DNA of 64,000 nt from a phage. This document shows positions 4,020-44,378 of this stretch, one piece after another; the first letter of the stretch is position 1; each line of letters begins with the position of its first letter. The translations under genes were made by a program, and so were the position numbers. The notes under the pieces were generated by a model that had not been told where the DNA came from, did not search any database, and worked only from the letters and a program-made list of their open reading frames with translations. The stretch lies in the NCBI GenBank assembly GCA_012343875.1, contig GCA_012343875.1_3924.1. One strand, 5' to 3'.

Positions 4020-4877
4020 TTAGTCTTCTGTATCGAAGTCTTCATCCTCTTCGTCATCTGGGTCTGGCAAATCTTCATCATCACCATCATCAGACTCATT
4101 CGAAGATTTATGGTCTGTTGCATCTTCTTCAGTGATTTCACCGTTATCTTCGACACCATCAAGACCAAGCATAGCCAGTTCATCTTCATCCAGTTCAGGT
4201 TCACCATTAGCACCGTTACCACCAGTGTAAGGCACAAGAGTATCAATGATAAACTGTTCCTGAATAGGTTTTGTCAGAACATTGTTCTCAAAAGTGTAGA
4301 AGTGAGTAGAAAGAATCACACTACCAAAAGAACCGTTGCCAACTGCAATATCTGGGTGAATTACATCATAGTTCTTGTCATCTTCATGTTTATCAGATGC
4401 TTGAGCTTTGATTTTCTTCATTGGCTGCTTAACAGCTACACGCTTACCATTTACTTCTTCAATCAGCATTACAGGGAATGACTGTTTAGCTGTCCATACA
4501 GCACCATCCTTATAAGCTGCTGCACGACTTACTTTCAAGATGTAGTAAGTGTCTGCTTCAAAAGGTGGTTTACAACCAAACTTCTCTTCGAAGTCATCTG
4601 CATCAACTGCTTCAGTGGTGACTTTATCCCAGCCTTCTGGATTTTTCTTAGACTTAGTAAACTCTTTAAACAGTTTGTTACCGTCTTCTGCCAGAATTGA
4701 TACGCTGTAGTTACAGTCTTTTCCTGGGAATTTCTTATCAATAGACTTACCTTTTCCCGGACGTGGTGAAGTGTTCAGGTAATAAAACCAGACATCTTTC
4801 AGCAGGTAACGCAGAGTTTGACGCTCAGTACCGTTGTACTTCTCTACCGGAGCTTTCATTTTAACAACTTTAGACAT
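4020..4877 (-). CDS. putative single-stranded DNA-binding protein with acidic C-terminal tail
   Basis: C-terminus DDGDDEDLPDPDDEEDEDFDTED resembles acidic tails of T7 gp2.5-type SSBs; located among replication genes. Confidence 0.4.
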   Translation of the reverse strand: MSKVVKMKAPVEKYNGTERQTLRYLLKDVWFYYLNTSPRPGKGKSIDKKFPGKDCNYSVSILAEDGNKLFKEFTKSKKNPEGWDKVTTEAVDADDFEEKFGCKPPFEADTYYILKVSRAAAYKDGAVWTAKQSFPVMLIEEVNGKRVAVKQPMKKIKAQASDKHEDDKNYDVIHPDIAVGNGSFGSVILSTHFYTFENNVLTKPIQEQFIIDTLVPYTGGNGANGEPELDEDELAMLGLDGVEDNGEITEEDATDHKSSNESDDGDDEDLPDPDDEEDEDFDTED

Positions 4878-4949
4878 TATTTAAACCTCTATCTCAATTT
4901 ATGAAGAGTACCAATTCTAGTTTGTTGATACTCTATTGTCAAATACTAA

Positions 4950-5099
4950 TTACTGGAAGTTGTGCTTATCTTTAGAAGCTGCTTTACGTGCAGTTTTTCC
5001 AGTTCTTACACGTTTTTCTTCATAGTATTTTGCTGGTTTTCCAGCAGTGGCTTTTAAGGAATCACCAAAAACTTTTTCAAATGCTTTAGAGTGTTTCAT
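4950..5099 (-). CDS. small basic protein (49 aa), not in ORF track
   Basis: ATG overlaps stop of upstream ORF (ATGA), GGAG about 8 nt upstream; Lys/Arg-rich MKHSKAFEKVFGDSLKATAGKPAKYYEEKRVRTGKTARKAASKDKHNFQ. Confidence 0.35.
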   Translation of the reverse strand: MKHSKAFEKVFGDSLKATAGKPAKYYEEKRVRTGKTARKAASKDKHNFQ

Positions 5100-5377
5100 G
5101 ATATTCTCCGATATACTTGATATTCAAACACATTTTCTTTCATTATAAACAGCCAACCAATATTATGCTGAGGTATAGTAATAGTGACTGTAATAATACT
5201 GTGATGGAAGTTTTCTTCTACCTCAACGCCTCCATCACATTTCATGCAGAGCATTCTATAGAACCTATCAATCTTTGTCAAACACTCTTCCTGAAATTTA
5301 TTTAAACTTTTTTCTTCAAAGAAGGGTGTGAACCCCTCTCTTTTATAGCTATCACTCAGTTTCGAACGGGCAGTCAT
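5096..5377 (-). CDS. hypothetical protein (93 aa)
   Basis: ORF track; GAGG about 7 nt upstream of ATG; overlaps 3' end of primase-helicase gene by 26 nt. Confidence 0.4.
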   Translation of the reverse strand: MTARSKLSDSYKREGFTPFFEEKSLNKFQEECLTKIDRFYRMLCMKCDGGVEVEENFHHSIITVTITIPQHNIGWLFIMKENVFEYQVYRRIS

Positions 5378-7343
5378 CTACATCCTCACTTAATACAGGT
5401 GGAATCGTTGAGCTTTGACGCTGCTCTTCAGTATAGACTTCACCAGTCTCACGGTCAAACACTTCATCCTCATAATGTGGCAAAGAGTCATCGTAATGGT
5501 CTTCAACTTCACCAATACCAAACTGCTGGCGAATGTTTTCTGCTGCACCATCAATGTCAACTCCACAACCAGATGCTTTGATGAGACGTCCTGTATCTGG
5601 ATTGTACCAAGTATGACCAGCAATACCAGTTGACTTACCATGCCGACGGCACTTAGTTAACTTGATTTTTGTCAAGTTTTTCTTAACAGGGTCTGGGTCA
5701 ACCTTGTTACGCATTAATAGAATGTTGTTCATAGAAATCTGGAAATACGCACCAGAGCCTTTGATATCCTCTTCAGAGATATCTCCACCTTCAGAGTTGG
5801 CTTTCTGACCCCCTGCGCTCTTACGAACGTGACAGACGTTCACCTGTGCATACTGGTAGCGTTTGCAACGGCGCAATAGTTCAGACAAAACTTCCTCTTC
5901 ATCCGTATCTGAACGTGACAGAGCCAACGTAATAGGGTCAAGAATAATAATCTTACAGTCTAAACTGTTAACAAGATAGTCAACAAATTCCAGCAGGTTA
6001 TCTTGGTCAATTGCACCTTGATGGTCTACGATGTGGATACGACGACCTTTAGATAGCTCTGCATGTGCTTCCTTCAATTCATCCCAATCACGTTCGTCAT
6101 AAGGAATCTCAGAAATCTGCTTGCTGAGGTGGATTGCACAGAGCATCTCCATCAACTCTTCATAGGTATCTTCGACCGGAATTACACCAATATTGTAATC
6201 GGTATCTTTCCAAGCAGTATAAATCATTTCACGAGTGTATGCTGATTTACCCACTGAAGATGGTGCTGCCAGAGTTGTAATCTCACCTAAACCATAACCG
6301 CCATAAGTCAGCCTGTTCAAATCTCCGAAAGATTCTGGGAAAGGAATCAATGGAATCTGACCACGATTCTTCATTGCCTCAAAACCATCTGCGAAGTTCT
6401 TGATACCAGCAGGGCAGTAACGGGGCGCATTGTAGATACGCTGCTTAAACCCTTCAAGAACTGTGTCTTTCTCTTTATAGAACTTTGTCCACCATTCGTT
6501 AAGGTCTTTTACACCTTCTGGATACTGGAATAAACGAACCTTCTCAATAGGTAGGATACCAGCAGCCTCTTTGGTAGCTTTAGCACCTGCTTCATCGTTA
6601 TCAAAGCACAAGTAAATTTCATCAAATGATGTAATGTACTGATAGTTATCTTTGATAGACTTAATGTTTGCACCTGACGGAACAGATACGTGACAGTAAT
6701 TCTTACGACGAGATTTGTCCTTAATCGCAAGAGAAGTCATATAGATTGCTGTCGCACATTCCATCTCACCTTCCCAGATGAATAGACGGTTACCACCTTC
6801 TGGAGCAATCCATGAACCGAACATTGCTAGTTCACCTTTAATGTCTCCAACACCACCAGAAAAGTCTTTTAGCTTACCACGTAGGTGCTCTTTTGGATGG
6901 TCTTCTGGGTAACGGTGACGAACACGGTAGCCAACATGTTCTAGCTTACCATCTTCATTACGTTTGTAAGTTGGGTAGAAATGTGCGTCAATTTCACCAT
7001 CACTGTCAATGTCAACCTTGATACCTAAGCGTTCAAGGACTTTTGCAGGAATCTTCCTATCTTTCAAGTCCATTGCTTCTAGGTTTTCTTTTACATCGTC
7101 TAAATCCATTCCACGGAAAGTACGGTTTTTATTGTCTGAACCAGTAGAATAAGTGCTCACGATTTGTCCTTTATCAAAATCCCACTCTGGGAAACCTTTG
7201 TTACAACTAAAGCAAGTCATTGAATAAGAATCATCGTCATGGTGATAGATTGAACCAGCATCTGATGAACCACAACGTGGACATGCGCAATGACCAACAA
7301 ACTGACCAGCCTCTTTCAATTTACGACCTTTAGACATTAGCAC
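5352..7343 (-). CDS. bifunctional DNA primase-helicase (T7 gp4-like)
   Basis: N-terminal Cys4 zinc-binding CPRCGSSD...CFSCNKGF, central TOPRIM-like region, C-terminal Walker A AAPSSVGKSAYT (DnaB-like). Confidence 0.8.
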   Translation of the reverse strand: MLMSKGRKLKEAGQFVGHCACPRCGSSDAGSIYHHDDDSYSMTCFSCNKGFPEWDFDKGQIVSTYSTGSDNKNRTFRGMDLDDVKENLEAMDLKDRKIPAKVLERLGIKVDIDSDGEIDAHFYPTYKRNEDGKLEHVGYRVRHRYPEDHPKEHLRGKLKDFSGGVGDIKGELAMFGSWIAPEGGNRLFIWEGEMECATAIYMTSLAIKDKSRRKNYCHVSVPSGANIKSIKDNYQYITSFDEIYLCFDNDEAGAKATKEAAGILPIEKVRLFQYPEGVKDLNEWWTKFYKEKDTVLEGFKQRIYNAPRYCPAGIKNFADGFEAMKNRGQIPLIPFPESFGDLNRLTYGGYGLGEITTLAAPSSVGKSAYTREMIYTAWKDTDYNIGVIPVEDTYEELMEMLCAIHLSKQISEIPYDERDWDELKEAHAELSKGRRIHIVDHQGAIDQDNLLEFVDYLVNSLDCKIIILDPITLALSRSDTDEEEVLSELLRRCKRYQYAQVNVCHVRKSAGGQKANSEGGDISEEDIKGSGAYFQISMNNILLMRNKVDPDPVKKNLTKIKLTKCRRHGKSTGIAGHTWYNPDTGRLIKASGCGVDIDGAAENIRQQFGIGEVEDHYDDSLPHYEDEVFDRETGEVYTEEQRQSSTIPPVLSEDVDDCPFETE

Positions 7344-7530
7344 CTCTTCGTTGTAGTTCTGCCTTCAATCCATTTTCAATCTTGTCCAGTTCATGAATTT
7401 CATCTGCAATCTCTTTCCTTCGTGATTCAACTCTCTTAAGACGTTCAATCATTACCTCATTGGAAAGAGATGAGAGTTCCACTAAACGGTGGTCAATAAC
7501 TTTAAAATTGTCTTTTACTCTCATCTTCAT
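7330..7530 (-). CDS. hypothetical coiled-coil protein (66 aa)
   Basis: ORF track. Confidence 0.4.
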   Translation of the reverse strand: MKMRVKDNFKVIDHRLVELSSLSNEVMIERLKRVESRRKEIADEIHELDKIENGLKAELQRRGANV

Positions 7531-7538
7531 TCTCTCTT

Positions 7539-8282
7539 TTAAACTTTAATGATGGCTCTTAGCTTGTTCTCAAGGTCTGCAAGAGTACCATTATTATGAA
7601 TAATGTCACGCTCATATTTTGTAGAAATCCCATTTTCTGAAACATGTGATGAAACTTTGTCCACATTGTCTCTTTTTACTTCAATAGTTTGGTGTGCAAA
7701 TCTACTCAGCCATTCAGCTTCAGAGTCAAATCTTAAATCACTGATTAAGACAAAACCATATTGATTTCTAAGTGAGCACATTTCATGGAATCTAACCATT
7801 CTTTTTTCAAGGTCTTTAGACCAGAACTTGTCGCCCATTACTTTACGGACAACTTCAGTACCCCAAATCTGTTGAATTTGTCTTGATGAGAATTTATACT
7901 TTTTGCTAAACCCCAGACGTGTCAATAGAGTCGGTTTAGCAACCTTCTTAAGCTCCATGATTAATCGTCCGGTTAACTCTGACATAAGCTTGAAGTCCAT
8001 ATGGTAACGTTCATCTCTGAAGGTGAACTCCATAGCTTCCGTAACTTTAAACATCAGTTCAGGATATGATAAGTCAAAAACCTGTGGAGTCTCTTTAGTT
8101 TCACCGTACAGGTCATTCCAAGTCAAGTCAAATATCTTTGATGCAGATAGTTTAAGGTTGTCTGCAAAGGCCATTACTTCAACATTGTAGCCGTACTCAT
8201 CCTCTAAGATGTTCTTCACAATAGAACATGAGGTGTCTTTTCCAGAACGTGCCTTTCCAGTAAATGCGATAATATTACTCAT
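7539..8282 (-). CDS. putative deoxynucleoside monophosphate kinase
   Basis: N-terminal P-loop IIAFTGKARSGKDT as in T4 gp1 / T5 dNMP kinases; size 247 aa. Confidence 0.55.
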   Translation of the reverse strand: MSNIIAFTGKARSGKDTSCSIVKNILEDEYGYNVEVMAFADNLKLSASKIFDLTWNDLYGETKETPQVFDLSYPELMFKVTEAMEFTFRDERYHMDFKLMSELTGRLIMELKKVAKPTLLTRLGFSKKYKFSSRQIQQIWGTEVVRKVMGDKFWSKDLEKRMVRFHEMCSLRNQYGFVLISDLRFDSEAEWLSRFAHQTIEVKRDNVDKVSSHVSENGISTKYERDIIHNNGTLADLENKLRAIIKV

Positions 8283-17306: not shown

Positions 17307-17567
17307 ATGAAAATTGAATACTGCTATGAGTCTGATGGAACACCTATCCGATGTCCACATTGTGGATGTACAGACTTGCAAGGTGAGGTAAGTGAAATAG
17401 TCAACGGTCATATCGCTGAAGAGAGTACAAGGTGTACAGGGTGTAATGAAATCATTGCTTTCTGGGCTTATGGTTCATACCAACCTACACCACACTTAAT
17501 CTACCATAGCAATAAAGCTGTGAAGAATGTTATCAACTGGTTCATTAAGAAAGGATTTACAAAATGA
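17307..17567 (+). CDS. small zinc-ribbon protein (86 aa)
   Basis: CPHCGC...CTGCNE CxxC pairs. Confidence 0.45.
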   Translation: MKIEYCYESDGTPIRCPHCGCTDLQGEVSEIVNGHIAEESTRCTGCNEIIAFWAYGSYQPTPHLIYHSNKAVKNVINWFIKKGFTK

Positions 17568-18109
17568 TTAAATTAATCTTTGCAAGTGGTGAAAATGGGG
17601 AGTTTGGTACTCCAACTGGTATGCCGTGGCCTCGACATAAACAGGATATGAAAGAGTTTAAGAGAATCACTAAAAACAACTTAGTAGTGATGGGTAATGA
17701 GACTTTCAAGACTCTGGGTAGTAAACCTTTACCAGAACGTGCAAACCTCATCTTAACAAATTCTGTACCATACTTAGGCATAGACTTTGGCAAAGATGAG
17801 GTAATGTATGCTAAGGCCAGCAAAGAATCCTTTGGAGCATTTTTGAAGTATCTCGATAGCTCTATTGATGAAGATGTCTTTGTAATTGGTGGTGCAGGTG
17901 TCCTTGTCAATGCTTTACCATATGCTGGTGTAGTTTTCCATACAGTTTTCCATAAAGTTACTGAAGAGGCCACTGTGTATTTACCTTTTGAAAACTTCTT
18001 TGAGAAGCTGTATGATAACAGTGTATTTACAAAGGTACAGTCAAAACCATCAGAGGATGGTAAAGCAACCTTTGAAATTTATGTTCCACAAGTAAAAGGA
18101 CACTTTTGA
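17564..18109 (+). CDS. frd: dihydrofolate reductase
   Basis: MPW, FKRITKNNLVVMGNETFKTLG, PLPERANLIL and VIGGAGV align with canonical DHFR motifs. Confidence 0.9.
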   Translation: MIKLIFASGENGEFGTPTGMPWPRHKQDMKEFKRITKNNLVVMGNETFKTLGSKPLPERANLILTNSVPYLGIDFGKDEVMYAKASKESFGAFLKYLDSSIDEDVFVIGGAGVLVNALPYAGVVFHTVFHKVTEEATVYLPFENFFEKLYDNSVFTKVQSKPSEDGKATFEIYVPQVKGHF

Positions 18110-18110
18110 T

Positions 18111-19010
18111 ATGTCACAAGCAGATACAAGTTACAAAGATATCCTGAACCATGTTTTATCAGTTGGTGAACTGCGTACTACACGAACTGGAGATGTTATC
18201 TCTGCATTTGCTCCACCTAAGTTTCGCTTTGATATGAGGACTGGTTTCCCACTCTTAACATCTAAACAGGTGTTTACACGGCAAGTTATTGGGGAAGCTT
18301 TATGGTTCCTGAATGGTGAGAATAAGCTGGGTGAACTCCGTTACCGTACTTGGGGTGAAAATGATGGGGAACGCTGGACTATCTGGTCAGATGATTTTAA
18401 ACGCTGGTTAAGCTCTAATTATTCTTCTGAACAAGATTGGTTAGATGATGCAGGTGGGAGAATCTATGGGGTTCAGTGGAGAAACTTTGAAGGTCATAAT
18501 GGTTGTGTTGTAGACCAACTAGAGACCTTAGTAACAAAGATGAAGGGTGATATCACAGACCGTTACATGCTTGTTAATGCTTGGAATGCAGCAGATATTG
18601 CAGCAAACTCAATGGCTTTAGCACCTTGTCATGTTCTGTTTCAGATTTATATCACTAATGAAGGTGAAGTGGATTTGCAATGGTATCAGCGTTCTGTAGA
18701 CACCTTTTTAGGACTTCCATTTAACATTGCGTCTTACGGCTTCATCTTAGAAGTTCTTTGTAAGATGACTGGATACACTCCACGGTACTTGATAGGTGTC
18801 TTTGGGGATACTCAGATTTATCAGAACCATATGAAGCAGGTTTATGAACTGATGAACAATGAAGAGTTCCATGCACCAACTTTTGAGATTGGTCTACCAC
18901 TTAATACTTTAAGTGACCTGAAACATCTTACTGCAAGTGATTTTATTGGTGGTATTAACAACTACCAACATGCAGGGAAGATTGAAGCACCTCTGTCAGT
19001 AGGTAAGTAA
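18111..19010 (+). CDS. thyA: thymidylate synthase
   Basis: LAPCHVLFQIY (active-site Cys), DLQWYQRSVDTFLGLPFNIASY and YQNHM match ThyA signatures. Confidence 0.95.
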   Translation: MSQADTSYKDILNHVLSVGELRTTRTGDVISAFAPPKFRFDMRTGFPLLTSKQVFTRQVIGEALWFLNGENKLGELRYRTWGENDGERWTIWSDDFKRWLSSNYSSEQDWLDDAGGRIYGVQWRNFEGHNGCVVDQLETLVTKMKGDITDRYMLVNAWNAADIAANSMALAPCHVLFQIYITNEGEVDLQWYQRSVDTFLGLPFNIASYGFILEVLCKMTGYTPRYLIGVFGDTQIYQNHMKQVYELMNNEEFHAPTFEIGLPLNTLSDLKHLTASDFIGGINNYQHAGKIEAPLSVGK

Positions 19011-19056
19011 AAACAAAAAAGGCTCCTTTTTACGGGAGCCTTAAAATTTTATTTTT
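19011..19056. terminator. bidirectional intrinsic terminator between convergent operons
   Basis: A-run, stem GGCTCC/GGGAGCC (19021-19040), then T-rich tract; lies between thyA (+) stop and minus-strand ORF end. Confidence 0.7.
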
Positions 19057-19420
19057 CAGTATTCTTTGTGTTCTTTTCAGTAATAGCTTGCAAGGCTGAT
19101 ACTGATTGGGCCAGATTGTTCACACTGTCAGAGAATTTATCAAGAGTTTTGGTAAGTTTCGCATTCTCACCCTTAACATTCTCTAACTGGACTTTCTGGT
19201 TCTCCATACCTAGCTGAATCAGTCTCATGTCAGACTGTAAATCACGAATAGCTGAATAGTTACTTTTGGAATAATTATCTAGCTGCTGTAACTTTGTTGT
19301 GACAGACACTTCTTGCTTACCACTTGAAACTTGCATAGTGGTATACATCCCGATAACACTAAAAATACCAACTACAATTGCACCAATATTATTTTTAAAA
19401 GCTTCCTCTAGCCACTTCAT
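19049..19420 (-). CDS. membrane-anchored coiled-coil protein (possible i-spanin-like)
   Basis: N-terminal hydrophobic helix IGAIVVGIFSVIGMYTTM followed by coiled-coil-like sequence; last gene of late operon. Confidence 0.35.
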   Translation of the reverse strand: MKWLEEAFKNNIGAIVVGIFSVIGMYTTMQVSSGKQEVSVTTKLQQLDNYSKSNYSAIRDLQSDMRLIQLGMENQKVQLENVKGENAKLTKTLDKFSDSVNNLAQSVSALQAITEKNTKNTEK

Positions 19421-19615
19421 TTATTTCTCCCCCTTAAAAGCTTTTTCTAAGTTATCTACGAACTCATCATCAATAGGTGTGTCTGTTTTACTCGCAAGGT
19501 ATCTTGCAAGCTTAAAGAACACTTTCTCAATCATGTATTCACTCAGAAGGGATAAAATGAGTTTCCAGAAGAAGCTACCTAGATTTTTTAGAAGAATTGC
19601 TAGGATTGTAGGCAT
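19421..19615 (-). CDS. small membrane protein (possible holin-like)
   Basis: 64 aa with hydrophobic N-terminus MPTILAILLKNLGSFFWKLILSLL and charged C-terminus. Confidence 0.3.
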   Translation of the reverse strand: MPTILAILLKNLGSFFWKLILSLLSEYMIEKVFFKLARYLASKTDTPIDDEFVDNLEKAFKGEK

Positions 19616-19694
19616 TTAATCACCTCATCAGCCAAGATGGTGAGAATACCCATAAAGAATATTAACACCATCTTAACAATCAGTCAACAAGGGA

Positions 19695-22244
19695 TTAAGC
19701 AGTTCTTACCCAAGCCATTAACTTATAGAACTGGTTAGTAACACTAAATGCTGAACCAGAACCAGTACCACCTGTGTTACCACTAACTGTGTGGCTGTGA
19801 GCACCAATACCAACAGTGTGGCTGTGGTTACCTGTTGTATTCGTTACACCAGACCAGTTTCTTGATGCGTTGAAGTTGACAGGGATACCATTAGTAAAGT
19901 TGTTACCAGTATACCCTTTAGAACCTGCCTGACTACCGAGGTAGAATGCACCACTTGCTGTGTAGAAGCTACTAGCGTCACTTCTGAAGTAACCAAATGA
20001 ACCAGTAATCTCCATAGTACCTCTGTTGTGGTTGTGGTTACCAGTTGTGCTAGAAGTCTTAGTACCATAGTCAAATGATGAAGTAGTAGCAGAGAAGCTG
20101 TGCGTGTGTGAAGGTAAGTTACCAACAGACAACGTTACAGAGTCTGAACCACCAGTTGTAGCAACATCTGAACCGTTTGCTGCTGCAATTCTAATAGTTC
20201 TACCAACACCATTATTCAGGTACGTCCAAGTTAACCCAGGAAGTGCTGTGTTTGGGTTGACATTACTGTTAAACCACGTCACAATACCTACTGGATAGAT
20301 TTTATTCAGGTCTGTAGAGTCACTAATTGCTTCTGCAATCTTCTGGTCAGTTTCTGCTTTAGTGTATGCACCAATATCTGAAGGGGTTGGTTTTTGCAAA
20401 CTTGTGTAGTATTTTGCAATTGTACCCTTCACAATACCTTGTGGAGCATCATCAAATGTCTGTGGGACTTCAAACAACTGTACACTTGCATTACTAGAAG
20501 ACTGAACCCTTGTCGTTGTGCTGTTTTGATACGTACCAGCAAGATAGTAAATATCATAGGTGTCTCCAGAAGTATTCACATAACCAATATCCCTGATAAT
20601 GGTGTTCTCTGATGTTCTCCAAGCAACAACATTTAAGCCCTTTGGATTGTTATTTGAAGTTCGCAGAACAATTTCACATTTACCTGCTTGGTTTGGTGTA
20701 TTAATATTAAAACCTGACCCACCAAATACCTCAATAACAGCAGTGGATGCTGATTGTGGCATCACAACAGTGGCAATTTTAGCCCACTTATCAGTGTTTC
20801 CCACATTGAAGCTAGTGCTTCTGATTCTTAGGTATCTACTATCACTAGCACTTTGCGTAAAGTATCTAGCATCTAAGTTAGAGAAATCTGAAGGTTGAAC
20901 TTGTCCAGCAATAGTCAATGTTTTGTTAATGTATGATGTTGTATTCCCGAGAACCAATTGGGTTCCAGAATAACTGTTATTTAGGGTTACATCATTATTA
21001 TCTGCCCCACCAACACCTACCCACCACCTTGACACATTAGCAGTGTCCACACCACGGATATACAATGGTCTGTTCTGAGTAGAGTTTTTCACAATTAGGG
21101 CTTCATTATCCGTAACAACTTTCTGTACACCATTAAAAGTATTTTGTGCATTAGTTCTTGCAATCGTACTTAATGTTGCTGCCGGAATATATCTAGAGTC
21201 AATATTAGTCCAATCCGAAGGTTGAACTTGACCAGTGATTCTGAAGTTCTGGTTGACTGAGATATAGCCATTATCAAGCCTGATATTTGAACCGTGTACA
21301 TAGTTGTGTAGCAGCACAGAGGCTGTGTTATCCCCGTTCCCTACATACCACCTGTTAGTGTTCTGAGAGTCAACACCCTGAATGAATAGTGAGCTAGCTG
21401 TTGCATTTTTCAACCTTAAAGCAGCACTGTCACTAATGATGGTTAGATTTCTACTAAACGTGTTAGTGCCCGTGAAATTATTATTAGCAGCTAACTGTGC
21501 AAATCTCTGATTAGCAACTGTCTGAGTGAAGTATCTAGCATCTAAGTTAGAGAAATCTGAAGGTTGAACTTGACCAGTGATTGCTAAAGACTTATTAACA
21601 GAGACATTACTTGCAACAGTCAAGGCTGAGTTGTATTTGTTATTGTACAGCTTTACTTCATCAGAGCCATTACTACCAATACCAACCCACCATCTAGCCG
21701 AACCATCTAGGTTTACACCTTCGATGTATTGTGCATTATTTGCATTTTGGTTTCTAAGGCGAAGTAAGTTAGCATCACCTTGAATATTTTGAGTTCCAGA
21801 GAATGTGTTTGTGATAGCAAGTCTTGCATATCTTGCGTCATTCTCTTCATTAGTTCTCATACCAAGCTCATTAGGACTTGGCTTATTCAGAGTATGATAA
21901 ACAGTTGCTGACCTTGAAGCATCTGCAATAGTTAGTTTAAGACCATTTGCATTAAGTTTAAAAGTCTTTAAAACATCCCCAATAGTAATTTCAGAAGAAC
22001 CTGTAGGGTCAAATACTGCCTTACCACCATAAAGTAACTTGACAATACCTAAATCCCCAGTCATATTACTTCCAGCAATCTGAACAAACCTTTCTAGTTT
22101 GAAGGAAGCTAAGAAGTCTTGATAGGTCATTCTGCGGTCTTCATCACCCAACATTTCAGGTCTTTTCTTAACTCTGATGTGCAATAGGTCTTCTGAACGA
22201 ATTGTGTCGATTGAGTTTAATTGACTCAATTTGTAATCTGCCAT
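19695..22244 (-). CDS. long tail fiber protein with His-rich receptor-binding tip
   Basis: 849 aa; three internal about 110-aa repeats ending GQVQPSDFSNLDARY; C-terminal HTHSF, GNHNHN, GNHSHTVGIGAHSHTV motifs and shared tail ...AFSV...VRTA. Confidence 0.75.
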   Translation of the reverse strand: MADYKLSQLNSIDTIRSEDLLHIRVKKRPEMLGDEDRRMTYQDFLASFKLERFVQIAGSNMTGDLGIVKLLYGGKAVFDPTGSSEITIGDVLKTFKLNANGLKLTIADASRSATVYHTLNKPSPNELGMRTNEENDARYARLAITNTFSGTQNIQGDANLLRLRNQNANNAQYIEGVNLDGSARWWVGIGSNGSDEVKLYNNKYNSALTVASNVSVNKSLAITGQVQPSDFSNLDARYFTQTVANQRFAQLAANNNFTGTNTFSRNLTIISDSAALRLKNATASSLFIQGVDSQNTNRWYVGNGDNTASVLLHNYVHGSNIRLDNGYISVNQNFRITGQVQPSDWTNIDSRYIPAATLSTIARTNAQNTFNGVQKVVTDNEALIVKNSTQNRPLYIRGVDTANVSRWWVGVGGADNNDVTLNNSYSGTQLVLGNTTSYINKTLTIAGQVQPSDFSNLDARYFTQSASDSRYLRIRSTSFNVGNTDKWAKIATVVMPQSASTAVIEVFGGSGFNINTPNQAGKCEIVLRTSNNNPKGLNVVAWRTSENTIIRDIGYVNTSGDTYDIYYLAGTYQNSTTTRVQSSSNASVQLFEVPQTFDDAPQGIVKGTIAKYYTSLQKPTPSDIGAYTKAETDQKIAEAISDSTDLNKIYPVGIVTWFNSNVNPNTALPGLTWTYLNNGVGRTIRIAAANGSDVATTGGSDSVTLSVGNLPSHTHSFSATTSSFDYGTKTSSTTGNHNHNRGTMEITGSFGYFRSDASSFYTASGAFYLGSQAGSKGYTGNNFTNGIPVNFNASRNWSGVTNTTGNHSHTVGIGAHSHTVSGNTGGTGSGSAFSVTNQFYKLMAWVRTA
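20850..21900 (-). repeat. intragenic tandem repeat (3 x about 335 bp) in long tail fiber gene
   Basis: Near-identical DNA at about 20862-20910, 21195-21245 and 21530-21580 (GAAATCTGAAGGTTGAACTTGACCAG...). Confidence 0.7.
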
Positions 22245-22290
22245 TATGAATTTTCCTCTTAAAAGGGGCTATAAAGCCCCTGTAAAGAAA

Positions 22291-23466
22291 TTAAGCTGTT
22301 CTCTGCCACACATACACTACAAAAGATGGCTGCTCAACACTGAAAGCTTGACCACCACCAACAGAACCAGATGTCCCTGAGTGTGTATGCTCAGAGCTAG
22401 AAACAGTAACAGTGCCTGTATGACTGTGCGAACCAATATTAACAGTGTGGCTGTGAGCACCAATTGCGACAGTATGGCTATGAGCACCAGATGATGCAGT
22501 TGTACCTGAGAAGCTATGGGTGTGAGCACCAGCTAAATCAGTATACATAGCATTACCAACACCAGCATCAGCAGATGCAGTAATAGCGTTTGTGCCACCC
22601 CTATCATTACCCCTCATAGGAACTCTATGGTTGTGGTTACCAGCATTACTTGTTGTGCCACTAAACGTGTGAGTGTGAGCACCAGCACTATTAGTCGTTT
22701 TTGTACCGTAATCAAAAGTTGATGTACTTTTTGAACCATAATCAAAACTAGAGATAGATACACTTGCAGAGTGTGTATGACCACCACCTGTTAGATAGAT
22801 AGAGTGAGTATGTGCTGGTAAATTATTATTTGTTAATGCTACAGTCTGAGAACCAAACGTTGAACCAACAGGTCTGGAATCTGTATCATAACCAACTAGT
22901 GCTCTACCTTTAGAAACTAACTCCCAAGTACCTCCACAAAGCAAGTAAGTGGATGGGTTAGCAGAGTTAACAGATAGATGAATAGTACCCACTGGATATG
23001 ATGCTTGGATAGCTTTGTATAGATTATTCACTGCTCTCGCTGTAGCATACTTATCAGCATCTTCATTGTACAGATTGGATGTTGTCCAGTTCTGAACATT
23101 ACTTAAACCGACCTGTGCTTTCGTTGTGTTATGTGGGTTACTTTTGTCGTCAATATGTTGCTGAATTAAGTTATTCACTTCCTCTGACGACATAATTTGT
23201 AGATTTGCTCTTGCCTCAGCAACATTTACAATGTCTGACAAGTTATTAGCTGCAACTAATTGAAGAGAGTTAATAACATTATCAAGACCTACTTGCGATT
23301 TCGTTACACCATGAGGGTTATTCCTCAAAGATGCGTGAGGTGCTAACAACTGTTCAAGCGTACATCTTTTATCCTCAACACCTTGCTTAAGATGGAAGAT
23401 ATCACTCAAATCAATTGGTAAGGCCGCTTGTGGCAAGGCACTAATTTGAATTTCACCTACTGCCAT
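22291..23466 (-). CDS. tail fiber protein (short), paralogous tip domain
   Basis: 391 aa; C-terminal AHTHS, GGHTHS, AHTHTF, NHNHR, GAHSHTVAIGAHSHTVNIGSHSHT and ...QAFSVEQPSFVVYVWQRTA, matching the tip of the 849-aa fiber. Confidence 0.7.
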   Translation of the reverse strand: MAVGEIQISALPQAALPIDLSDIFHLKQGVEDKRCTLEQLLAPHASLRNNPHGVTKSQVGLDNVINSLQLVAANNLSDIVNVAEARANLQIMSSEEVNNLIQQHIDDKSNPHNTTKAQVGLSNVQNWTTSNLYNEDADKYATARAVNNLYKAIQASYPVGTIHLSVNSANPSTYLLCGGTWELVSKGRALVGYDTDSRPVGSTFGSQTVALTNNNLPAHTHSIYLTGGGHTHSASVSISSFDYGSKSTSTFDYGTKTTNSAGAHTHTFSGTTSNAGNHNHRVPMRGNDRGGTNAITASADAGVGNAMYTDLAGAHTHSFSGTTASSGAHSHTVAIGAHSHTVNIGSHSHTGTVTVSSSEHTHSGTSGSVGGGQAFSVEQPSFVVYVWQRTA

Positions 23467-23468
23467 TA

Positions 23469-23771
23469 TTAAGCTCCTACATATTCATATGTGTAAAGGT
23501 TTCTTGTACTTGTTGATGCAGTCCCTGTCTCAGACTTAATGAGACTCCAACCATTAGCCACTAAATCTGGTTGCTCAGTTGCATATGAACGAACTTCACC
23601 AACAGTGCCATTTACTTTATTCAGCAGGTAGTTGATAATATAGTTGAACCACTGTCTACCCATAGGTTCACCCTTTAAAAGACCTGTCTCTTGAACTTCC
23701 GGTGGTGGTAAAACTTTTAACTGATTACCATCAGTATCTACTTCGTTTGTAGACCAATTTAGAACTGCCAT
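23469..23771 (-). CDS. hypothetical tail-associated protein (100 aa)
   Basis: ORF track; between baseplate genes and tail fibers. Confidence 0.35.
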
Positions 23772-24625
23772 TAAGAATTTCCTTCTTGTTGTGATTTATC
23801 TTTTCTGCCTTTGACAATTTGCGCAACCTCAGCCATGATTCCGTATGCACCACCTGCAATAGCTTCTTTACCAACGATGAAATAACCACTATTATTAGAC
23901 CTATCTACAGTCATATAGTCATCGCTCTGCGAGTTTACTGTTCTGTCAACCTTAAAGTAACCATCAATAACACCAGCATCTGCAAGGCTACCTACTAAGT
24001 TGGACTCCAGAGAGCCACCAGTATTATTTGTGACAAGACCTCTGTTAGCATCAGTTACAAACCAGTTCTCTTTATCATCAACAATAGCAAGTGATGAATC
24101 AGCAACCTCTACAGGTGTCCAAGCAGTCCCATTTAAAGTAACATCTCTTAAGATAACAGCGGAGCCAGTAGTTGTTGCAGACATCTTTGACAGTGTATAT
24201 GCAGCATCTAGAACGCTTTTTCTAGTGTTGATACGGATAACGATACCACCAGTCTTAGGAGTAATATGCTCAAAAATCTGAGAGAAAGTTGCACCATATA
24301 GTGTCATAATTGCTTTTTGCAAGAATGTTGGGGTGGTGTCAGAGCGTCTTAGGAAGATTTGGATATAAAGCATAGCTCTATATGTTTCATCATCTGCACC
24401 TAAAGGTCTAGGAACTTTAATCAGTGAGCCAATATTATCAAGTTGTTGGCCTACTGACGTCCTGATATTTCTCTCTGTGTGCATCTGCCAGCAAACATCC
24501 TCTAATGTTTGTAGCTCATCAGTGATTGCTTTCAAGATACTTGTATAGATAAATTTATCTTTAAACTGTGTTACAGTCCTTTCATCAAGTGTTTTATAAT
24601 AAACACTATCAATCTTTTCAAACAT
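23771..24625 (-). CDS. putative baseplate protein (P2 gpI-like position)
   Basis: Position and size in a baseplate gene block; no motif confirmed. Confidence 0.35.
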
Positions 24626-24627
24626 TA

Positions 24628-26096
24628 TTACTCCTTAGTGATGGTATACTGGCTACTTTCCCAAACAGTATATTGGTCACCGTCAACAGTAATTCTTGCT
24701 GTAGTATATTGTCCGTCACTAGGTGGAACTGATTGGCTGTTTGATAATGCTACTTTCACCTCATTAATCTCAATACCTTTAATTACATCATAGATATATC
24801 CGTAGATTCTGTTAGGGATAACGTCATTACCAACCTTAAGAGTTCTTCCGTAGGCATTAATACCTTGTACAATACTGTCTCTGATATCCTCTTCAGGGAT
24901 TGTCAAGCTTTCTTCGTCATATAATGAGTAAGATACTTTAACAAATGCGTATTTTGGTGTTGGTCTGCTAAAGTAAATATTATGTGCTAAACCACCTAAA
25001 TCATGGGCTGTACCAAAAATTGAGCCGTAAGCTCTAATACCAGCAGGTTTTGTATCCCAGATTGCTTGAGCAACATTATCATTTTGACCACCGACTACGA
25101 CAATCTTAAAAGATTTTGGTGGAAGACCTTCTGAGTTCGTCTCTTCAGTATCATTTTCAACACCTGAAGCATCTGAGACCCCTTGAACTCTTTTAACAGC
25201 AGCCACAATTGCATCCAAAGTCCCTACACCAGTAACTGCTAAGGATTCTAAATATCTCTGCCTAAGTTCTGTGTCAGTTTCTTCGTTTCTACCAGTTGTT
25301 AAGTCATACCTGTTATAGATGCTGTCAAGGCCATCAACAGTGGTTTCAATCTCAATAAGAGTCCCAGCTAAAGCAGGAATAGCACCAACCTCTTCAGCTA
25401 CTACATCTGAGATAGTTGTAATCTTTGTAAATGTCAGAAACGTTGTCGCAGTAACAACCATAGGGTTTGTTCTTGCAATAATATCACCCTCATCTTTATA
25501 GACTCTTAATGAGGCTCCATCATTGATAACTTCTGCTTTTGCTACAATACCACCATTAATAGCCTCTGCTAATTTAGTTAGTAGTGTGGTAATTGTGTCT
25601 GATGAGGTTGGTTTATATGAGAAAATAACGTTATCAATAATAATAACATAATCTGCATCAGTTCGTAAAGAGTTAACTTCAAGAACAGCTTCAACACAAT
25701 ATGATGGGGTAAGGGTAATATTGTTAACTGGATAAAAGATATTTCCAGCAGTACTTCTCAATCTTGTTGTTGAAGAGATGGTAGCACCAGTTGTTCCAGT
25801 GAACTCAACCTGACCCCTTGTTGCCTGAGCAACATATCTGTATACAGCATTCAAAGCTGTGATATCATCAAGGTTAAATCCTTCAGCCTTGTCAATTGTC
25901 CCGCCGTCATAGATTTCTGATAGAATCTCATGTGTATCTGCTAAAGACCTTGCAATTGAAGCTAGGAAGAGACCTAATTGACTATCTTCAGAAACGTCAA
26001 GGTTTGGTGAAATATCTCTAAGAAGTCTTGATTTGATATTATCAAAAATTTCCTGATATCTTAGAGTTTGTAATCCTGTTGTAGTTAATCCTGCCA

Positions 26097-26097
<1 letters not shown>
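24628..26097 (-). CDS. putative baseplate J-like protein
   Basis: 489 aa, immediately upstream of a gp25/W-sized gene, as in Mu/P2 baseplate operons. Confidence 0.4.
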
Positions 26098-43183: not shown

Positions 43184-43259
43184 TGGAGAATCCGAAGGGA
43201 CTCGAACCCTTATAAACCTGTTTTGCAGACAGGCACATAGCCATTTCTGTCACGGATTC
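43184..43259 (-). tRNA. tRNA-Cys (GCA)
   Basis: Hand-folded: acceptor GAATCCG/CGGATTC, anticodon stem CCTGT/ACAGG with loop CTGCAAA, T-arm AAGGG-TTCGAGT-CCCTT, encoded CCA. Confidence 0.7.
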
Positions 43260-43263
43260 AAAT

Positions 43264-43356
43264 TGGAGGAAGATACCAGACTTGAACTGGTACACCGATT
43301 TCTCAGCTACTGGCAGTTTAGCAAACTGCTCCCTTACCTTTTAGGGTTAATCTTCC
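43264..43356 (-). tRNA. tRNA-Ser (GCT), type II
   Basis: Acceptor GGAAGAT/ATCTTCC, anticodon loop TTGCTAA, long variable arm, T-loop TTCAAGT, CCA; about 93 nt. Confidence 0.65.
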
Positions 43357-43357
43357 A

Positions 43358-44092
43358 TTATTTCTGTAATGCGTTCTTCATTTCTGGTGTTGCAATAGCA
43401 TCAATTACACCAGTTTTACAAGCATCATCAAACCAGTCTGGTAAGATACCTGCTAAGAACCCATTGATATTCGTTTTAAGGTACTCTGCAATAAGGGCAG
43501 CTTCTTCTTCAATCATCTGCACAACTTCATCTGCATAAGCTGTAATCTTCGAGATACCTTCATTAATCTTACTAACAGCTTGGTTAGCTAAATCAGAAAT
43601 AGTATCAAGATCTTTGTCAATAGCGTCTTGTAAATCACTTAATACATCATTAACACCGTCTAGTGCACTGTTAATCGTATCAATAGCTTTTTGACCATAC
43701 TCTGTAGCAACACCCATAATACCACTAAATGGTGTACAACCAACTTGTTCACCTGCTGCACCCATAACATTGGAATAACCTTTTGCTACCTGCATACGTG
43801 ATGAAAACTCATCAATGGATTTTTGACCGTAATCTGTCAGTGTTTTGGTGGTTGATGTAGTGCTTGTTAGACTCGTGGTAAAGCTGTTAAGCAGAACTGT
43901 TGTAAGTCCAGCAGCAACAAGCTTATCTTTTACTGTAGGGTCTGATACAGAACTAATAGAGCTTACAAGTGATGTAGAGGCAGCTACGGTTCCACCGAGA
44001 ACTGCTGCACCAGTAATAAGGGGGTTAGAAAACCCTTTACCAGTTTTTAAGAGATTAAAAATCTCCTTACCTTGTTCTGTCATCTCTTTCAT
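43358..44092 (-). CDS. hypothetical protein with hydrophobic segment and coiled-coil region
   Basis: Track ORF 43358..44155 trimmed to internal ATG 44092 to avoid overlap with tRNA-Phe; segment LITGAAVLGGTVAASTSLVSSISSV. Confidence 0.45.
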   Translation of the reverse strand: MKEMTEQGKEIFNLLKTGKGFSNPLITGAAVLGGTVAASTSLVSSISSVSDPTVKDKLVAAGLTTVLLNSFTTSLTSTTSTTKTLTDYGQKSIDEFSSRMQVAKGYSNVMGAAGEQVGCTPFSGIMGVATEYGQKAIDTINSALDGVNDVLSDLQDAIDKDLDTISDLANQAVSKINEGISKITAYADEVVQMIEEEAALIAEYLKTNINGFLAGILPDWFDDACKTGVIDAIATPEMKNALQK

Positions 44093-44108
44093 TAAGCACC
44101 TTTGAAAT

Positions 44109-44184
44109 TGGTAGTCCAGTGGGATTTGAACCCTCTTCTCATGTTTTTCAGACACGCGCTTTAACCATATAAGCTACTTGGACT
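44109..44184 (-). tRNA. tRNA-Phe (GAA)
   Basis: Anticodon stem-loop CGTGT-CTGAAAA-ACATG, T-loop TTCAAAT, CCA; ends approximate. Confidence 0.6.
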
Positions 44185-44190
44185 ATAAAT

Positions 44191-44266
44191 TGGGGTGACC
44201 TACGGGATTTGAACCCGTATAGACCATGTTCACAGCATGGGTCATTACCATTTATGATAAGGCCAC
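44191..44266 (-). tRNA. tRNA-His (GTG)
   Basis: Anticodon stem CCATG/CATGG with loop CTGTGAA, T-arm CGGG-TTCAAAT-CCCG, CCA. Confidence 0.65.
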
Positions 44267-44297
44267 ATTTAAGGACTCTCGTAAGAATCCTTAGAAG

Positions 44298-44373
44298 TGG
44301 CAGCGGCATAAGGATTTGAACCTTAATAAGACAGCTTCAGAGACTGCTGCATTGCCAGTTATGCTATACCGCT
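44298..44373 (-). tRNA. tRNA-Gln (CTG)
   Basis: Acceptor AGCGGTA/TGCCGCT, anticodon loop CTCTGAA, T-arm TAAGG-TTCAAAT-CCTTA, CCA. Confidence 0.6.
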
Positions 44374-44378
44374 AAATT

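Follow-up and report, generated by a model that had tools for sequence, protein, structure and literature searches.

Two adjacent minus-strand genes of the phage DNA analysed here very probably encode the short and the long tail fibre (STF and LTF) of a wV8-like Felixounavirus, with tips of the T4 gp37 type and a host range that changes via cassette exchange. The DNA is a stretch of 64,000 nucleotides (GenBank assembly GCA_012343875.1, contig GCA_012343875.1_3924.1), hereafter the window. The open reading frames (ORFs) were found exactly at 22,291-23,466 (STF, 391 aa) and 19,695-22,244 (LTF, 849 aa). Both match PHROG tail-fibre families (phrog_2097, E 1.8e-139, and phrog_4277, E 0, respectively), which bears out a sequence-only reading made earlier without database searches that had proposed two adjacent tail-fibre genes. 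A search of NCBIfam returned no family for either fibre. Positions 19,600-23,600 are 97.7% identical at the nucleotide level to Escherichia phage wV8 (Felixounavirus) as well as to several O157 typing phages. The records of wV8 and of the O157 typing phages annotate gp82 and gp83 as tail fibre proteins "similar to" the Felix O1 proteins NP_944921 and NP_944923. The STF is the orthologue of wV8 gp82, Felix O1 gp76 and Bas63 gp26, with three amino acid differences from wV8 gp82. The LTF is the orthologue of wV8 gp83, Felix O1 gp77 and Bas63 gp27, with 68 differences from wV8 gp83. The wV8 and Felix O1 proteins (NC_012749; NC_005282) are direct orthologues. Gene identity, homology, domain layout, conservation pattern and cassette mosaicism of the pair are observed directly.

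The finding is correct yet already known. Felix O1 gp76 and gp77 were likened to the C-terminus of T4 gp37 in a 2010 paper (PMC3185647), and the gp37 likeness of VpaE1 gp74 and gp75 followed in 2015, together with their conserved N-termini and variable middle (PMC4690856). The full fibre architecture, the counts of the histidine motif HxH, the repeat domains and an unexpected variability were reported in 2025 for Bas63 (PMC12609058). As a discovery the analysis carries little weight; a known receptor-binding apparatus was read correctly. Small additions are the cassette boundaries, a Felix O1-type repeat 2 within a wV8-type gene, a type A knob predicted to be a beta-sandwich, a wV8-type LTF tip lacking two HxH motifs and the occurrence of one tip cassette in both fibre genes. 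The results are also of use for annotation, as many Felixounavirus records still label the STF and LTF genes "hypothetical".

Conserved frame and exchangeable cassettes of the long fibre

Conservation within the LTF alternates between a nearly fixed frame and highly variable segments. Among relatives (27 IMG/VR loci with an LTF were fetched and 26 LTFs examined), column conservation across 24 LTFs exceeds 0.9 at the N-terminus, the junctions of the repeat units, the collar and the C-terminus, and drops to 0.0-0.6 in the repeat cores, the knob and the head. LTF length ranges from 777 to 849 aa among relatives, owing to the position aa 462-620 and to the distal needle and head. The differences from wV8 gp83 are concentrated in aa 253-336, a single repeat core that holds about 55 of the 68. 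The wV8 LTF is of the same length class and has the same knob and head as the window LTF, but differs at repeat 2 (aa ~253-336). There, the core of the window LTF shares 97-100% amino acid identity with Felix O1, HY02 and Pr103Blw and is not of the wV8 type. The best full-length match in the phage collection is KEP3 (92.1%). The window LTF allele therefore combines known cassettes into a new mosaic.

The N-terminal regions of both fibres belong to the conserved frame. The baseplate-binding region of the LTF (aa 1-124; 21,873-22,244, minus strand as for all fibre features below) shows 92-96% column conservation in 24 LTFs, and the baseplate-binding and shaft region of the STF (aa 1-145; 23,032-23,466) is 92-100% conserved among relatives. 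Identity to 26 relatives amounts to 74-98% for LTF aa 1-125 and 84-100% for STF aa 1-135, consistent with conservation across the genus. The two N-termini share no sequence similarity with each other in BLASTP. The STF shaft carries a 15-aa motif, NPHxxTKxQVGLxNV, twice (aa 49-63 and 110-124, 61 aa apart), which is probably the "triple alpha-helix and turn" motif of Bas63. A stretch at STF aa ~100-131 is matched by many unrelated PHROG tail-protein families.

The mid-fibre knob of the LTF (aa 472-611; 20,412-20,831) is a predicted beta-sandwich, here called type A, and one of three alternative cassettes in the genus. The three types found at the position aa 462-620 are unrelated to each other, and the window type is about 60 aa longer. 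The knob spans ~140 aa in the window as opposed to a ~90-aa domain in the relatives L018 and L024, which serve as proxies for Bas63 in this comparison since they match its reported HxH counts (7 in the STF and 6 in the LTF, including an HHxH). Residues 653-890 of a T2-type gp37 share 33% identity with repeat 3 and the knob taken together, and copies of the knob are present in many T-even gp37s as well as in lambdoid Stf and P1-like fibres. Its predicted fold resembles sandwiches of carbohydrate-binding modules, galectins and tailspikes. WceF contains a jelly-roll sandwich after a triple beta-helix (PMC7949094); we infer rather than observe which WceF domain the knob matched.

Such a fold at such a variable site raises an alternative to recognition by the tip head alone. 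The knob might form a second, lateral glycan-binding site that sets the specificity of wV8/Felix O1-type phages for hosts with smooth lipopolysaccharide (LPS). It occupies the most variable LTF position, with three unrelated cassettes and a column conservation of 0.0-0.4, and its fold likeness to carbohydrate-binding modules, galectins and tailspikes would suit a glycan ligand. Within Felixounavirus, close copies come mainly from phages of O157, Shiga toxin-producing Escherichia coli and Salmonella, among the matches listed. The authors of the Bas63 study name host recognition as one possible cause of variability at this place (PMC12609058). However, the idea that type A knobs track smooth-LPS hosts is weakened by their occurrence in T2- and K3-type gp37. 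We consider a knob-determined specificity unlikely, though it is the strongest of the alternatives weighed here.

Upstream of the knob, the LTF contains three tandem repeats of about 110 aa, as the sequence-only reading had claimed. Unit 1 (aa 125-238; 21,531-21,872) is a gp37_trimer or pyramid-type beta domain. Unit 2 (aa 239-352; 21,189-21,530) is the Felix O1/HY02-type cassette and matches T7 gp17 (PDB 4A0T) in phmmer at E 1.3e-6, and unit 3 (aa 353-461; 20,862-21,188) is again a gp37_trimer domain. The units are 109-114 aa long and all end in GQVQPSD(F/W)(S/T)N(L/I)D(A/S)RY. The Pfam family PF20744 (gp37_trimer) matches the LTF three times (E 9.1e-81), above its gathering score, and the fold is a single-sheet beta meander like that of the T7 gp17 pyramid. 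The closest known relatives of the units are accordingly PF20744 itself, the pyramid domain of T7 gp17 and the rod domains of T4 gp34 (PDB 5NXH). A search with a repeat-unit hidden Markov model (HMM) revealed no additional cryptic copies (a fourth or fifth) in the LTF and no copy at all in the STF, so the "five beta-helix domains" of Bas63 correspond to three sequence repeats and two non-homologous positions.

The repeats are far less apparent at the DNA level. Pairwise identities are 38-42% for amino acids and 58-63% for DNA. Self-BLASTP of the LTF did not report internal repeats, which were recovered by anchoring on the GQVQPSD motif and with the HMM. Of the ~335-bp DNA repeats that had been described as visible, only a 76-nt stretch at the unit ends is repeated, its copies lying 327 and 342 nt apart. 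Tandem Repeats Finder detected no ~335-bp array between 18,000 and 25,000, and its sole call there was a 27-nt period inside the STF needle. The repeats are old duplications. An assembly artefact can be dismissed because the copies have diverged and the same three-unit layout recurs in 26 independent relatives.

The sequence-only reading had counted variation in repeat length among the routes to host-range change, which did not hold. Exactly three units occur at the same positions in all 26 related LTFs, including two shortened ones, and the Bas63 study likewise saw no variable repeat number across the genus (PMC12609058). An adaptation of the LTF by expansion and contraction of the ~110-aa array, with changes in fibre length and host range, is therefore very improbable. 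The units do lie in tandem, and the 76-nt ends are 67-84% identical and could in principle permit unequal recombination. Yet the number of units is constant, their DNA identity is low, and the length differences among LTFs fall in the knob and head and not in the repeats. As to the two shortened LTFs, the ORFs of L011 (5750-7111) and L022 (5818-7443) encode 453 and 541 aa, respectively, and end right after the third repeat. They could reflect a frameshift, a sequencing error or a genuinely split gene. The LTF of phage EC6 was suspected to be incomplete in the Bas63 study (PMC12609058).

Shared gp37-type tips and their heads

The C-terminal tips of the two fibres are homologous. LTF residues 623-849 and STF residues 136-391 are 30% identical (BLASTP with compositional adjustment, E 9e-18), and tblastn with either tip recovered only these two copies in the window. 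The STF tip aligns to residues 18-227 of the T4 gp37 tip chain (PDB 2XGF; E 1.8e-26) and the LTF tip aligns to the same structure at E 5.8e-7, in both cases with the HxH motifs in register. The 2XGF structure was reportedly described by Bartual et al. in 2010. The tips consist of a collar, a needle with HxH motifs, a head and a short C-terminal tail. The STF collar (aa ~146-218, approximate boundaries; 22,813-23,031) matches PF21939 (Gp10_C) at E 2.5e-18, with 67.8 bits against a cut-off of 27, and aligns to 2XGF from chain residue 18 as well as to the gp10 structures 2FKK and 5HX2. The LTF collar (aa ~646-712, boundaries likewise approximate; 20,109-20,309) is 92-95% conserved and recognized by its alignment to the STF collar within the E 9e-18 match, in addition to PF21939.

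Nine HxH motifs occur in the needle and head of the STF (aa 219-372; 22,351-22,812). Four of them (positions 219, 230, 264 and 278) lie on the outgoing limb, and the other five (315, 329, 338, 347 and 360) on the returning one. The needle and head of the LTF (aa 713-830; 19,755-20,108) contain only four, two on either side of the head, namely PSHTHSF at 713, GNHNHN at 737, GNHSHTV at 807 and GAHSHTV at 816. Both fibres thus carry HxH motifs on either side of a variable head. In 20,000 composition-preserving shuffles, the STF sequence gave a mean of 1.42 motifs with one shuffle reaching nine, and the LTF sequence a mean of 0.16 with no shuffle reaching four. Across 37 aligned homologues, each of the four LTF pairs is either invariant or conserved to at least 90%. 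The quoted histidine motifs and the shared histidine-rich tip proposed from sequence inspection are thus both present, and the pairwise alignment reveals position-specific homology with conserved HxH columns. The idea that these are low-complexity stretches of G, S, T and H that neither adopt a specific structure nor bind metal, so that STF and LTF resemble each other in composition only, can draw on the residue content and short internal repeats of the region, including the 27-nt period at 22,418-22,489 and the repeat families D2-D5 there, but is hardly credible given the in-register alignment to 2XGF, the conservation of the HxH pairs, the rarity of equal counts among shuffles and the compositional adjustment in BLASTP.

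The C-terminal tails of the STF (GQAFSVEQPSFVVYVWQRTA; 22,294-22,350) and the LTF (GSAFSVTNQFYKLMAWVRTA; 19,698-19,754) had been called near-identical, and this was an overstatement. They are similar, with agreement at 8 of 19 positions. The STF tail is kept in all relatives, the LTF tail is essentially invariant in 24 LTFs, and an ending of the form AF...V-R-x-A, or AF...V(R)xA, is common to both and to T-even gp37. The likeness to gp12/gp37-type fibres proposed earlier stands for the gp37 tip, and extends to gp12 only through the collar family PF21939. The PDB search of the STF with phmmer returned no significant match to gp12 itself. Judged from the alignments, the STF tip is gp37-like and not gp12-like. 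T4 gp12 also binds metal through an HxH motif.

Several observations weigh against a tip that matches T4 gp37 in full. The LTF collar scores slightly below the PF21939 cut-off (23.8 bits against 27, E 9.5e-5). An AF2 monomer model of the tip has a pLDDT below 50 for most of residues 268-349 of the modelled fragment. No Felixounavirus fibre chain is among the PDB matches found by phmmer, no structure of these fibres has been deposited, and the PDB likewise lacks coordinates of the Bas63 fibres. T4 gp37 needs the assembly chaperones gp38 and gp57A. A tblastn search of the 64-kb window with T2-type gp38 and Mosigvirus Tfa gave nothing below E 1.8, a search of low sensitivity that did not include gp57A. 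A chaperone is not, however, a structural criterion of a gp37-type tip. Finally, the LTF lacks two head-proximal HxH motifs of most relatives, so that its needle may differ from the T4 model.

The heads are the most diverse parts of the tips. In the STF, tip variability is confined to a head cassette of ~34 aa (aa 281-314; 22,525-22,626). The LTF head is an enlarged cassette of ~67 aa (aa 740-806; 19,827-20,027) flanked by HxH pairs, and the distal needle and head at this position fall into at least six types among relatives. In place of the two head-proximal HxH motifs, the window LTF reads ...SFG... and ...SRN.... Its head recurs in 61 phage records, among them O157 phages (100% identity), Shigella phages Sf13-Sf17 (~60%) and a pair of T-even phages of 170 kb (90% and 71%). 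A similarity to Mosigvirus gp37 was set aside, as it covers mostly the conserved HxH flanks and not the head. Two relatives (L008 and L017) carry an LTF head almost identical to that of T4 gp37.

Head cassettes may also move from one fibre gene to the other. In the window, identity between the variable tip cassettes of the two fibres is 25%, as opposed to 71-85% in three relatives (L005, L016 and L026), so a single head type can occur in both paralogues. Such sharing implies that STF and LTF genes exchange sequence, and both fibres of these phages possibly recognize the same receptor. At these loci, the STF lies at ~4533-5699 and the LTF at ~5750-8270. Duplicated tips as a substrate for host-range change, as suggested earlier, are thus plausible.

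Proposed mechanism and relation to known fibres

Both fibres presumably form homotrimers whose conserved N-termini fix them to the baseplate. As in Bas63, the STF would attach to wedge protein 2 and the LTF to the platform protein encoded directly upstream. The LTF shaft would consist of three diverged beta domains of the gp37_trimer or T7 gp17 pyramid type, followed by the beta-sandwich knob. At the tip, the chain would run from the collar along the outgoing limb of a six-stranded beta needle, turn in a small receptor-contacting head and then return, and the conserved C-terminal strand would pack back at the collar. The HxH motifs of both limbs would face the needle core, where three chains could form octahedral metal sites (Fe2+ in T4), up to nine in the STF and four in the LTF. 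The trimer state, metal binding, chain reversal and receptor contact of this model are carried over from T4 gp37 (2XGF) and the Bas63 cryo-EM work, and statements on T4 gp37 follow the Bas63 paper and the 2XGF alignment. As a rule, phages of the Felix O1 type are reported to bind LPS and not protein receptors (PMC8594841).

Host range very probably changes through homologous replacement of cassettes between highly conserved junctions, with a constant number of repeats. The exchangeable units are the repeat core, the knob and the distal needle with head, and exchange partners include other phages, the other fibre gene and T-even gp37 genes. An extension of this mechanism is speculative and in our view rather improbable. 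The wV8-type LTF might hold two separately exchangeable recognition modules, a lateral lectin-like knob and a tip that trades two head-proximal metal sites for a ~67-aa head shared with T-even phages. Together with the STF tip, a virion could then display three binding specificities, reshuffled by gene conversion between the fibre genes. The cassette map, in which repeat 2, the knob and the head each lie between conserved junctions, is of practical use for engineering phages against O157 or Salmonella.

The closest known system is Bas63 (Escherichia phage JohannRWettstein), for which a cryo-EM study appeared in Science Advances in 2025 (PMC12609058; baseplate PDB 9NDY). Bas63 gp26 and gp27 belong to the same genus, have the same gene order and vary in the same places. 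In both Bas63 fibres, the collar, HxH needle and head are built as in T4 gp37, and the LTF has repeated beta-helix domains (PMC12609058). The reported HxH counts of Bas63 are seven in the STF and six in the LTF, compared with nine and four in the window. The window LTF has an enlarged head and two HxH motifs fewer than the relatives with Bas63 counts. Homology to the T4 gp37 tip spans collar, needle and head, and the C-terminal endings are similar. T4 gp37 differs in carrying seven HxH motifs as reported (PMC12609058), and the head cassettes show no relationship by sequence. In Felixounavirus, the fibres sit directly on the baseplate, whereas T4 gp37 is attached via gp34-gp36. With the T4 short tail fibre gp12 and the C-terminal domain of gp10, the gp10/gp11/gp12/gp37 collar fold family is shared (PF21939, with matches to 2FKK and 5HX2).

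Neighbouring genes and intergenic elements

The fibre genes close a single-strand series of baseplate genes. Baseplate wedge protein 2 (24,628-26,097, minus) matches PDB 9ndy_H, "Wedge protein 2 (gp023)", over its full length with 1016 bits and contains the Pfam domain Baseplate_J. Baseplate wedge protein 1 (23,771-24,625, minus) matches the baseplate protein family phrog_4017 (E 9e-167) and stands at the position of Bas63 gp24. The T4 gp9-like LTF-platform protein (23,469-23,771, minus) matches PDB 9ndy_S, "LTF platform protein (gp025)", at E 5e-58 over residues 1-100 of 100. The order wedge 2, wedge 1, LTF platform, STF and LTF equals that of Bas63 gp23-gp27 (PMC12609058) and of the wV8 annotation. 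In Bas63, the STF attaches to wedge protein 2 and the LTF to the gp9-like platform protein (PMC12609058).

The gap between STF and LTF contains a hairpin, GGGGCT-TTAT-AGCCCC with TTTT behind it (22,261-22,280, minus), which was read by eye and is annotated as a rho-independent terminator in wV8. A consensus terminator scan missed this hairpin, which fell below its threshold. A Shine-Dalgarno sequence, AAGAGGA, lies after the hairpin and before the LTF ATG. The hairpin might lower the expression of LTF relative to STF. Partial LTF occupancy was seen in the Bas63 cryo-EM study (PMC12609058).

Directly downstream of the LTF stop, the segment 19,620-19,694 contains a promoter-like TTGACT-17-TAATAT with an upstream TG, which overlaps a 9-bp inverted repeat (AAGATGGTG ... 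CACCATCTT). The promoter-like site precedes a 64-aa ORF with a hydrophobic N-terminus (19,421-19,615) and a 123-aa ORF with a transmembrane segment and coiled coil (19,049-19,420), both of PHROG families of unknown function. A bidirectional terminator-like hairpin at 19,019-19,042 (AAGGCTCC(n)GGAGCCTT), with T-runs on both strands, separates the convergent thymidylate synthase gene (plus) from the late fibre operon (minus). At the matching position in wV8, a rho-independent terminator is annotated on one strand. Genes for dihydrofolate reductase and thymidylate synthase (17,564-19,010, plus strand) directly adjoin the fibre operon, an arrangement shared with wV8 and Felix O1. Further away, 43,184-48,889 (minus) holds a cluster of 26 tRNA genes for most amino acids, 24 of them confirmed by Rfam. 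Felix O1 has been reported with 22 tRNAs, so the cluster fits this group.

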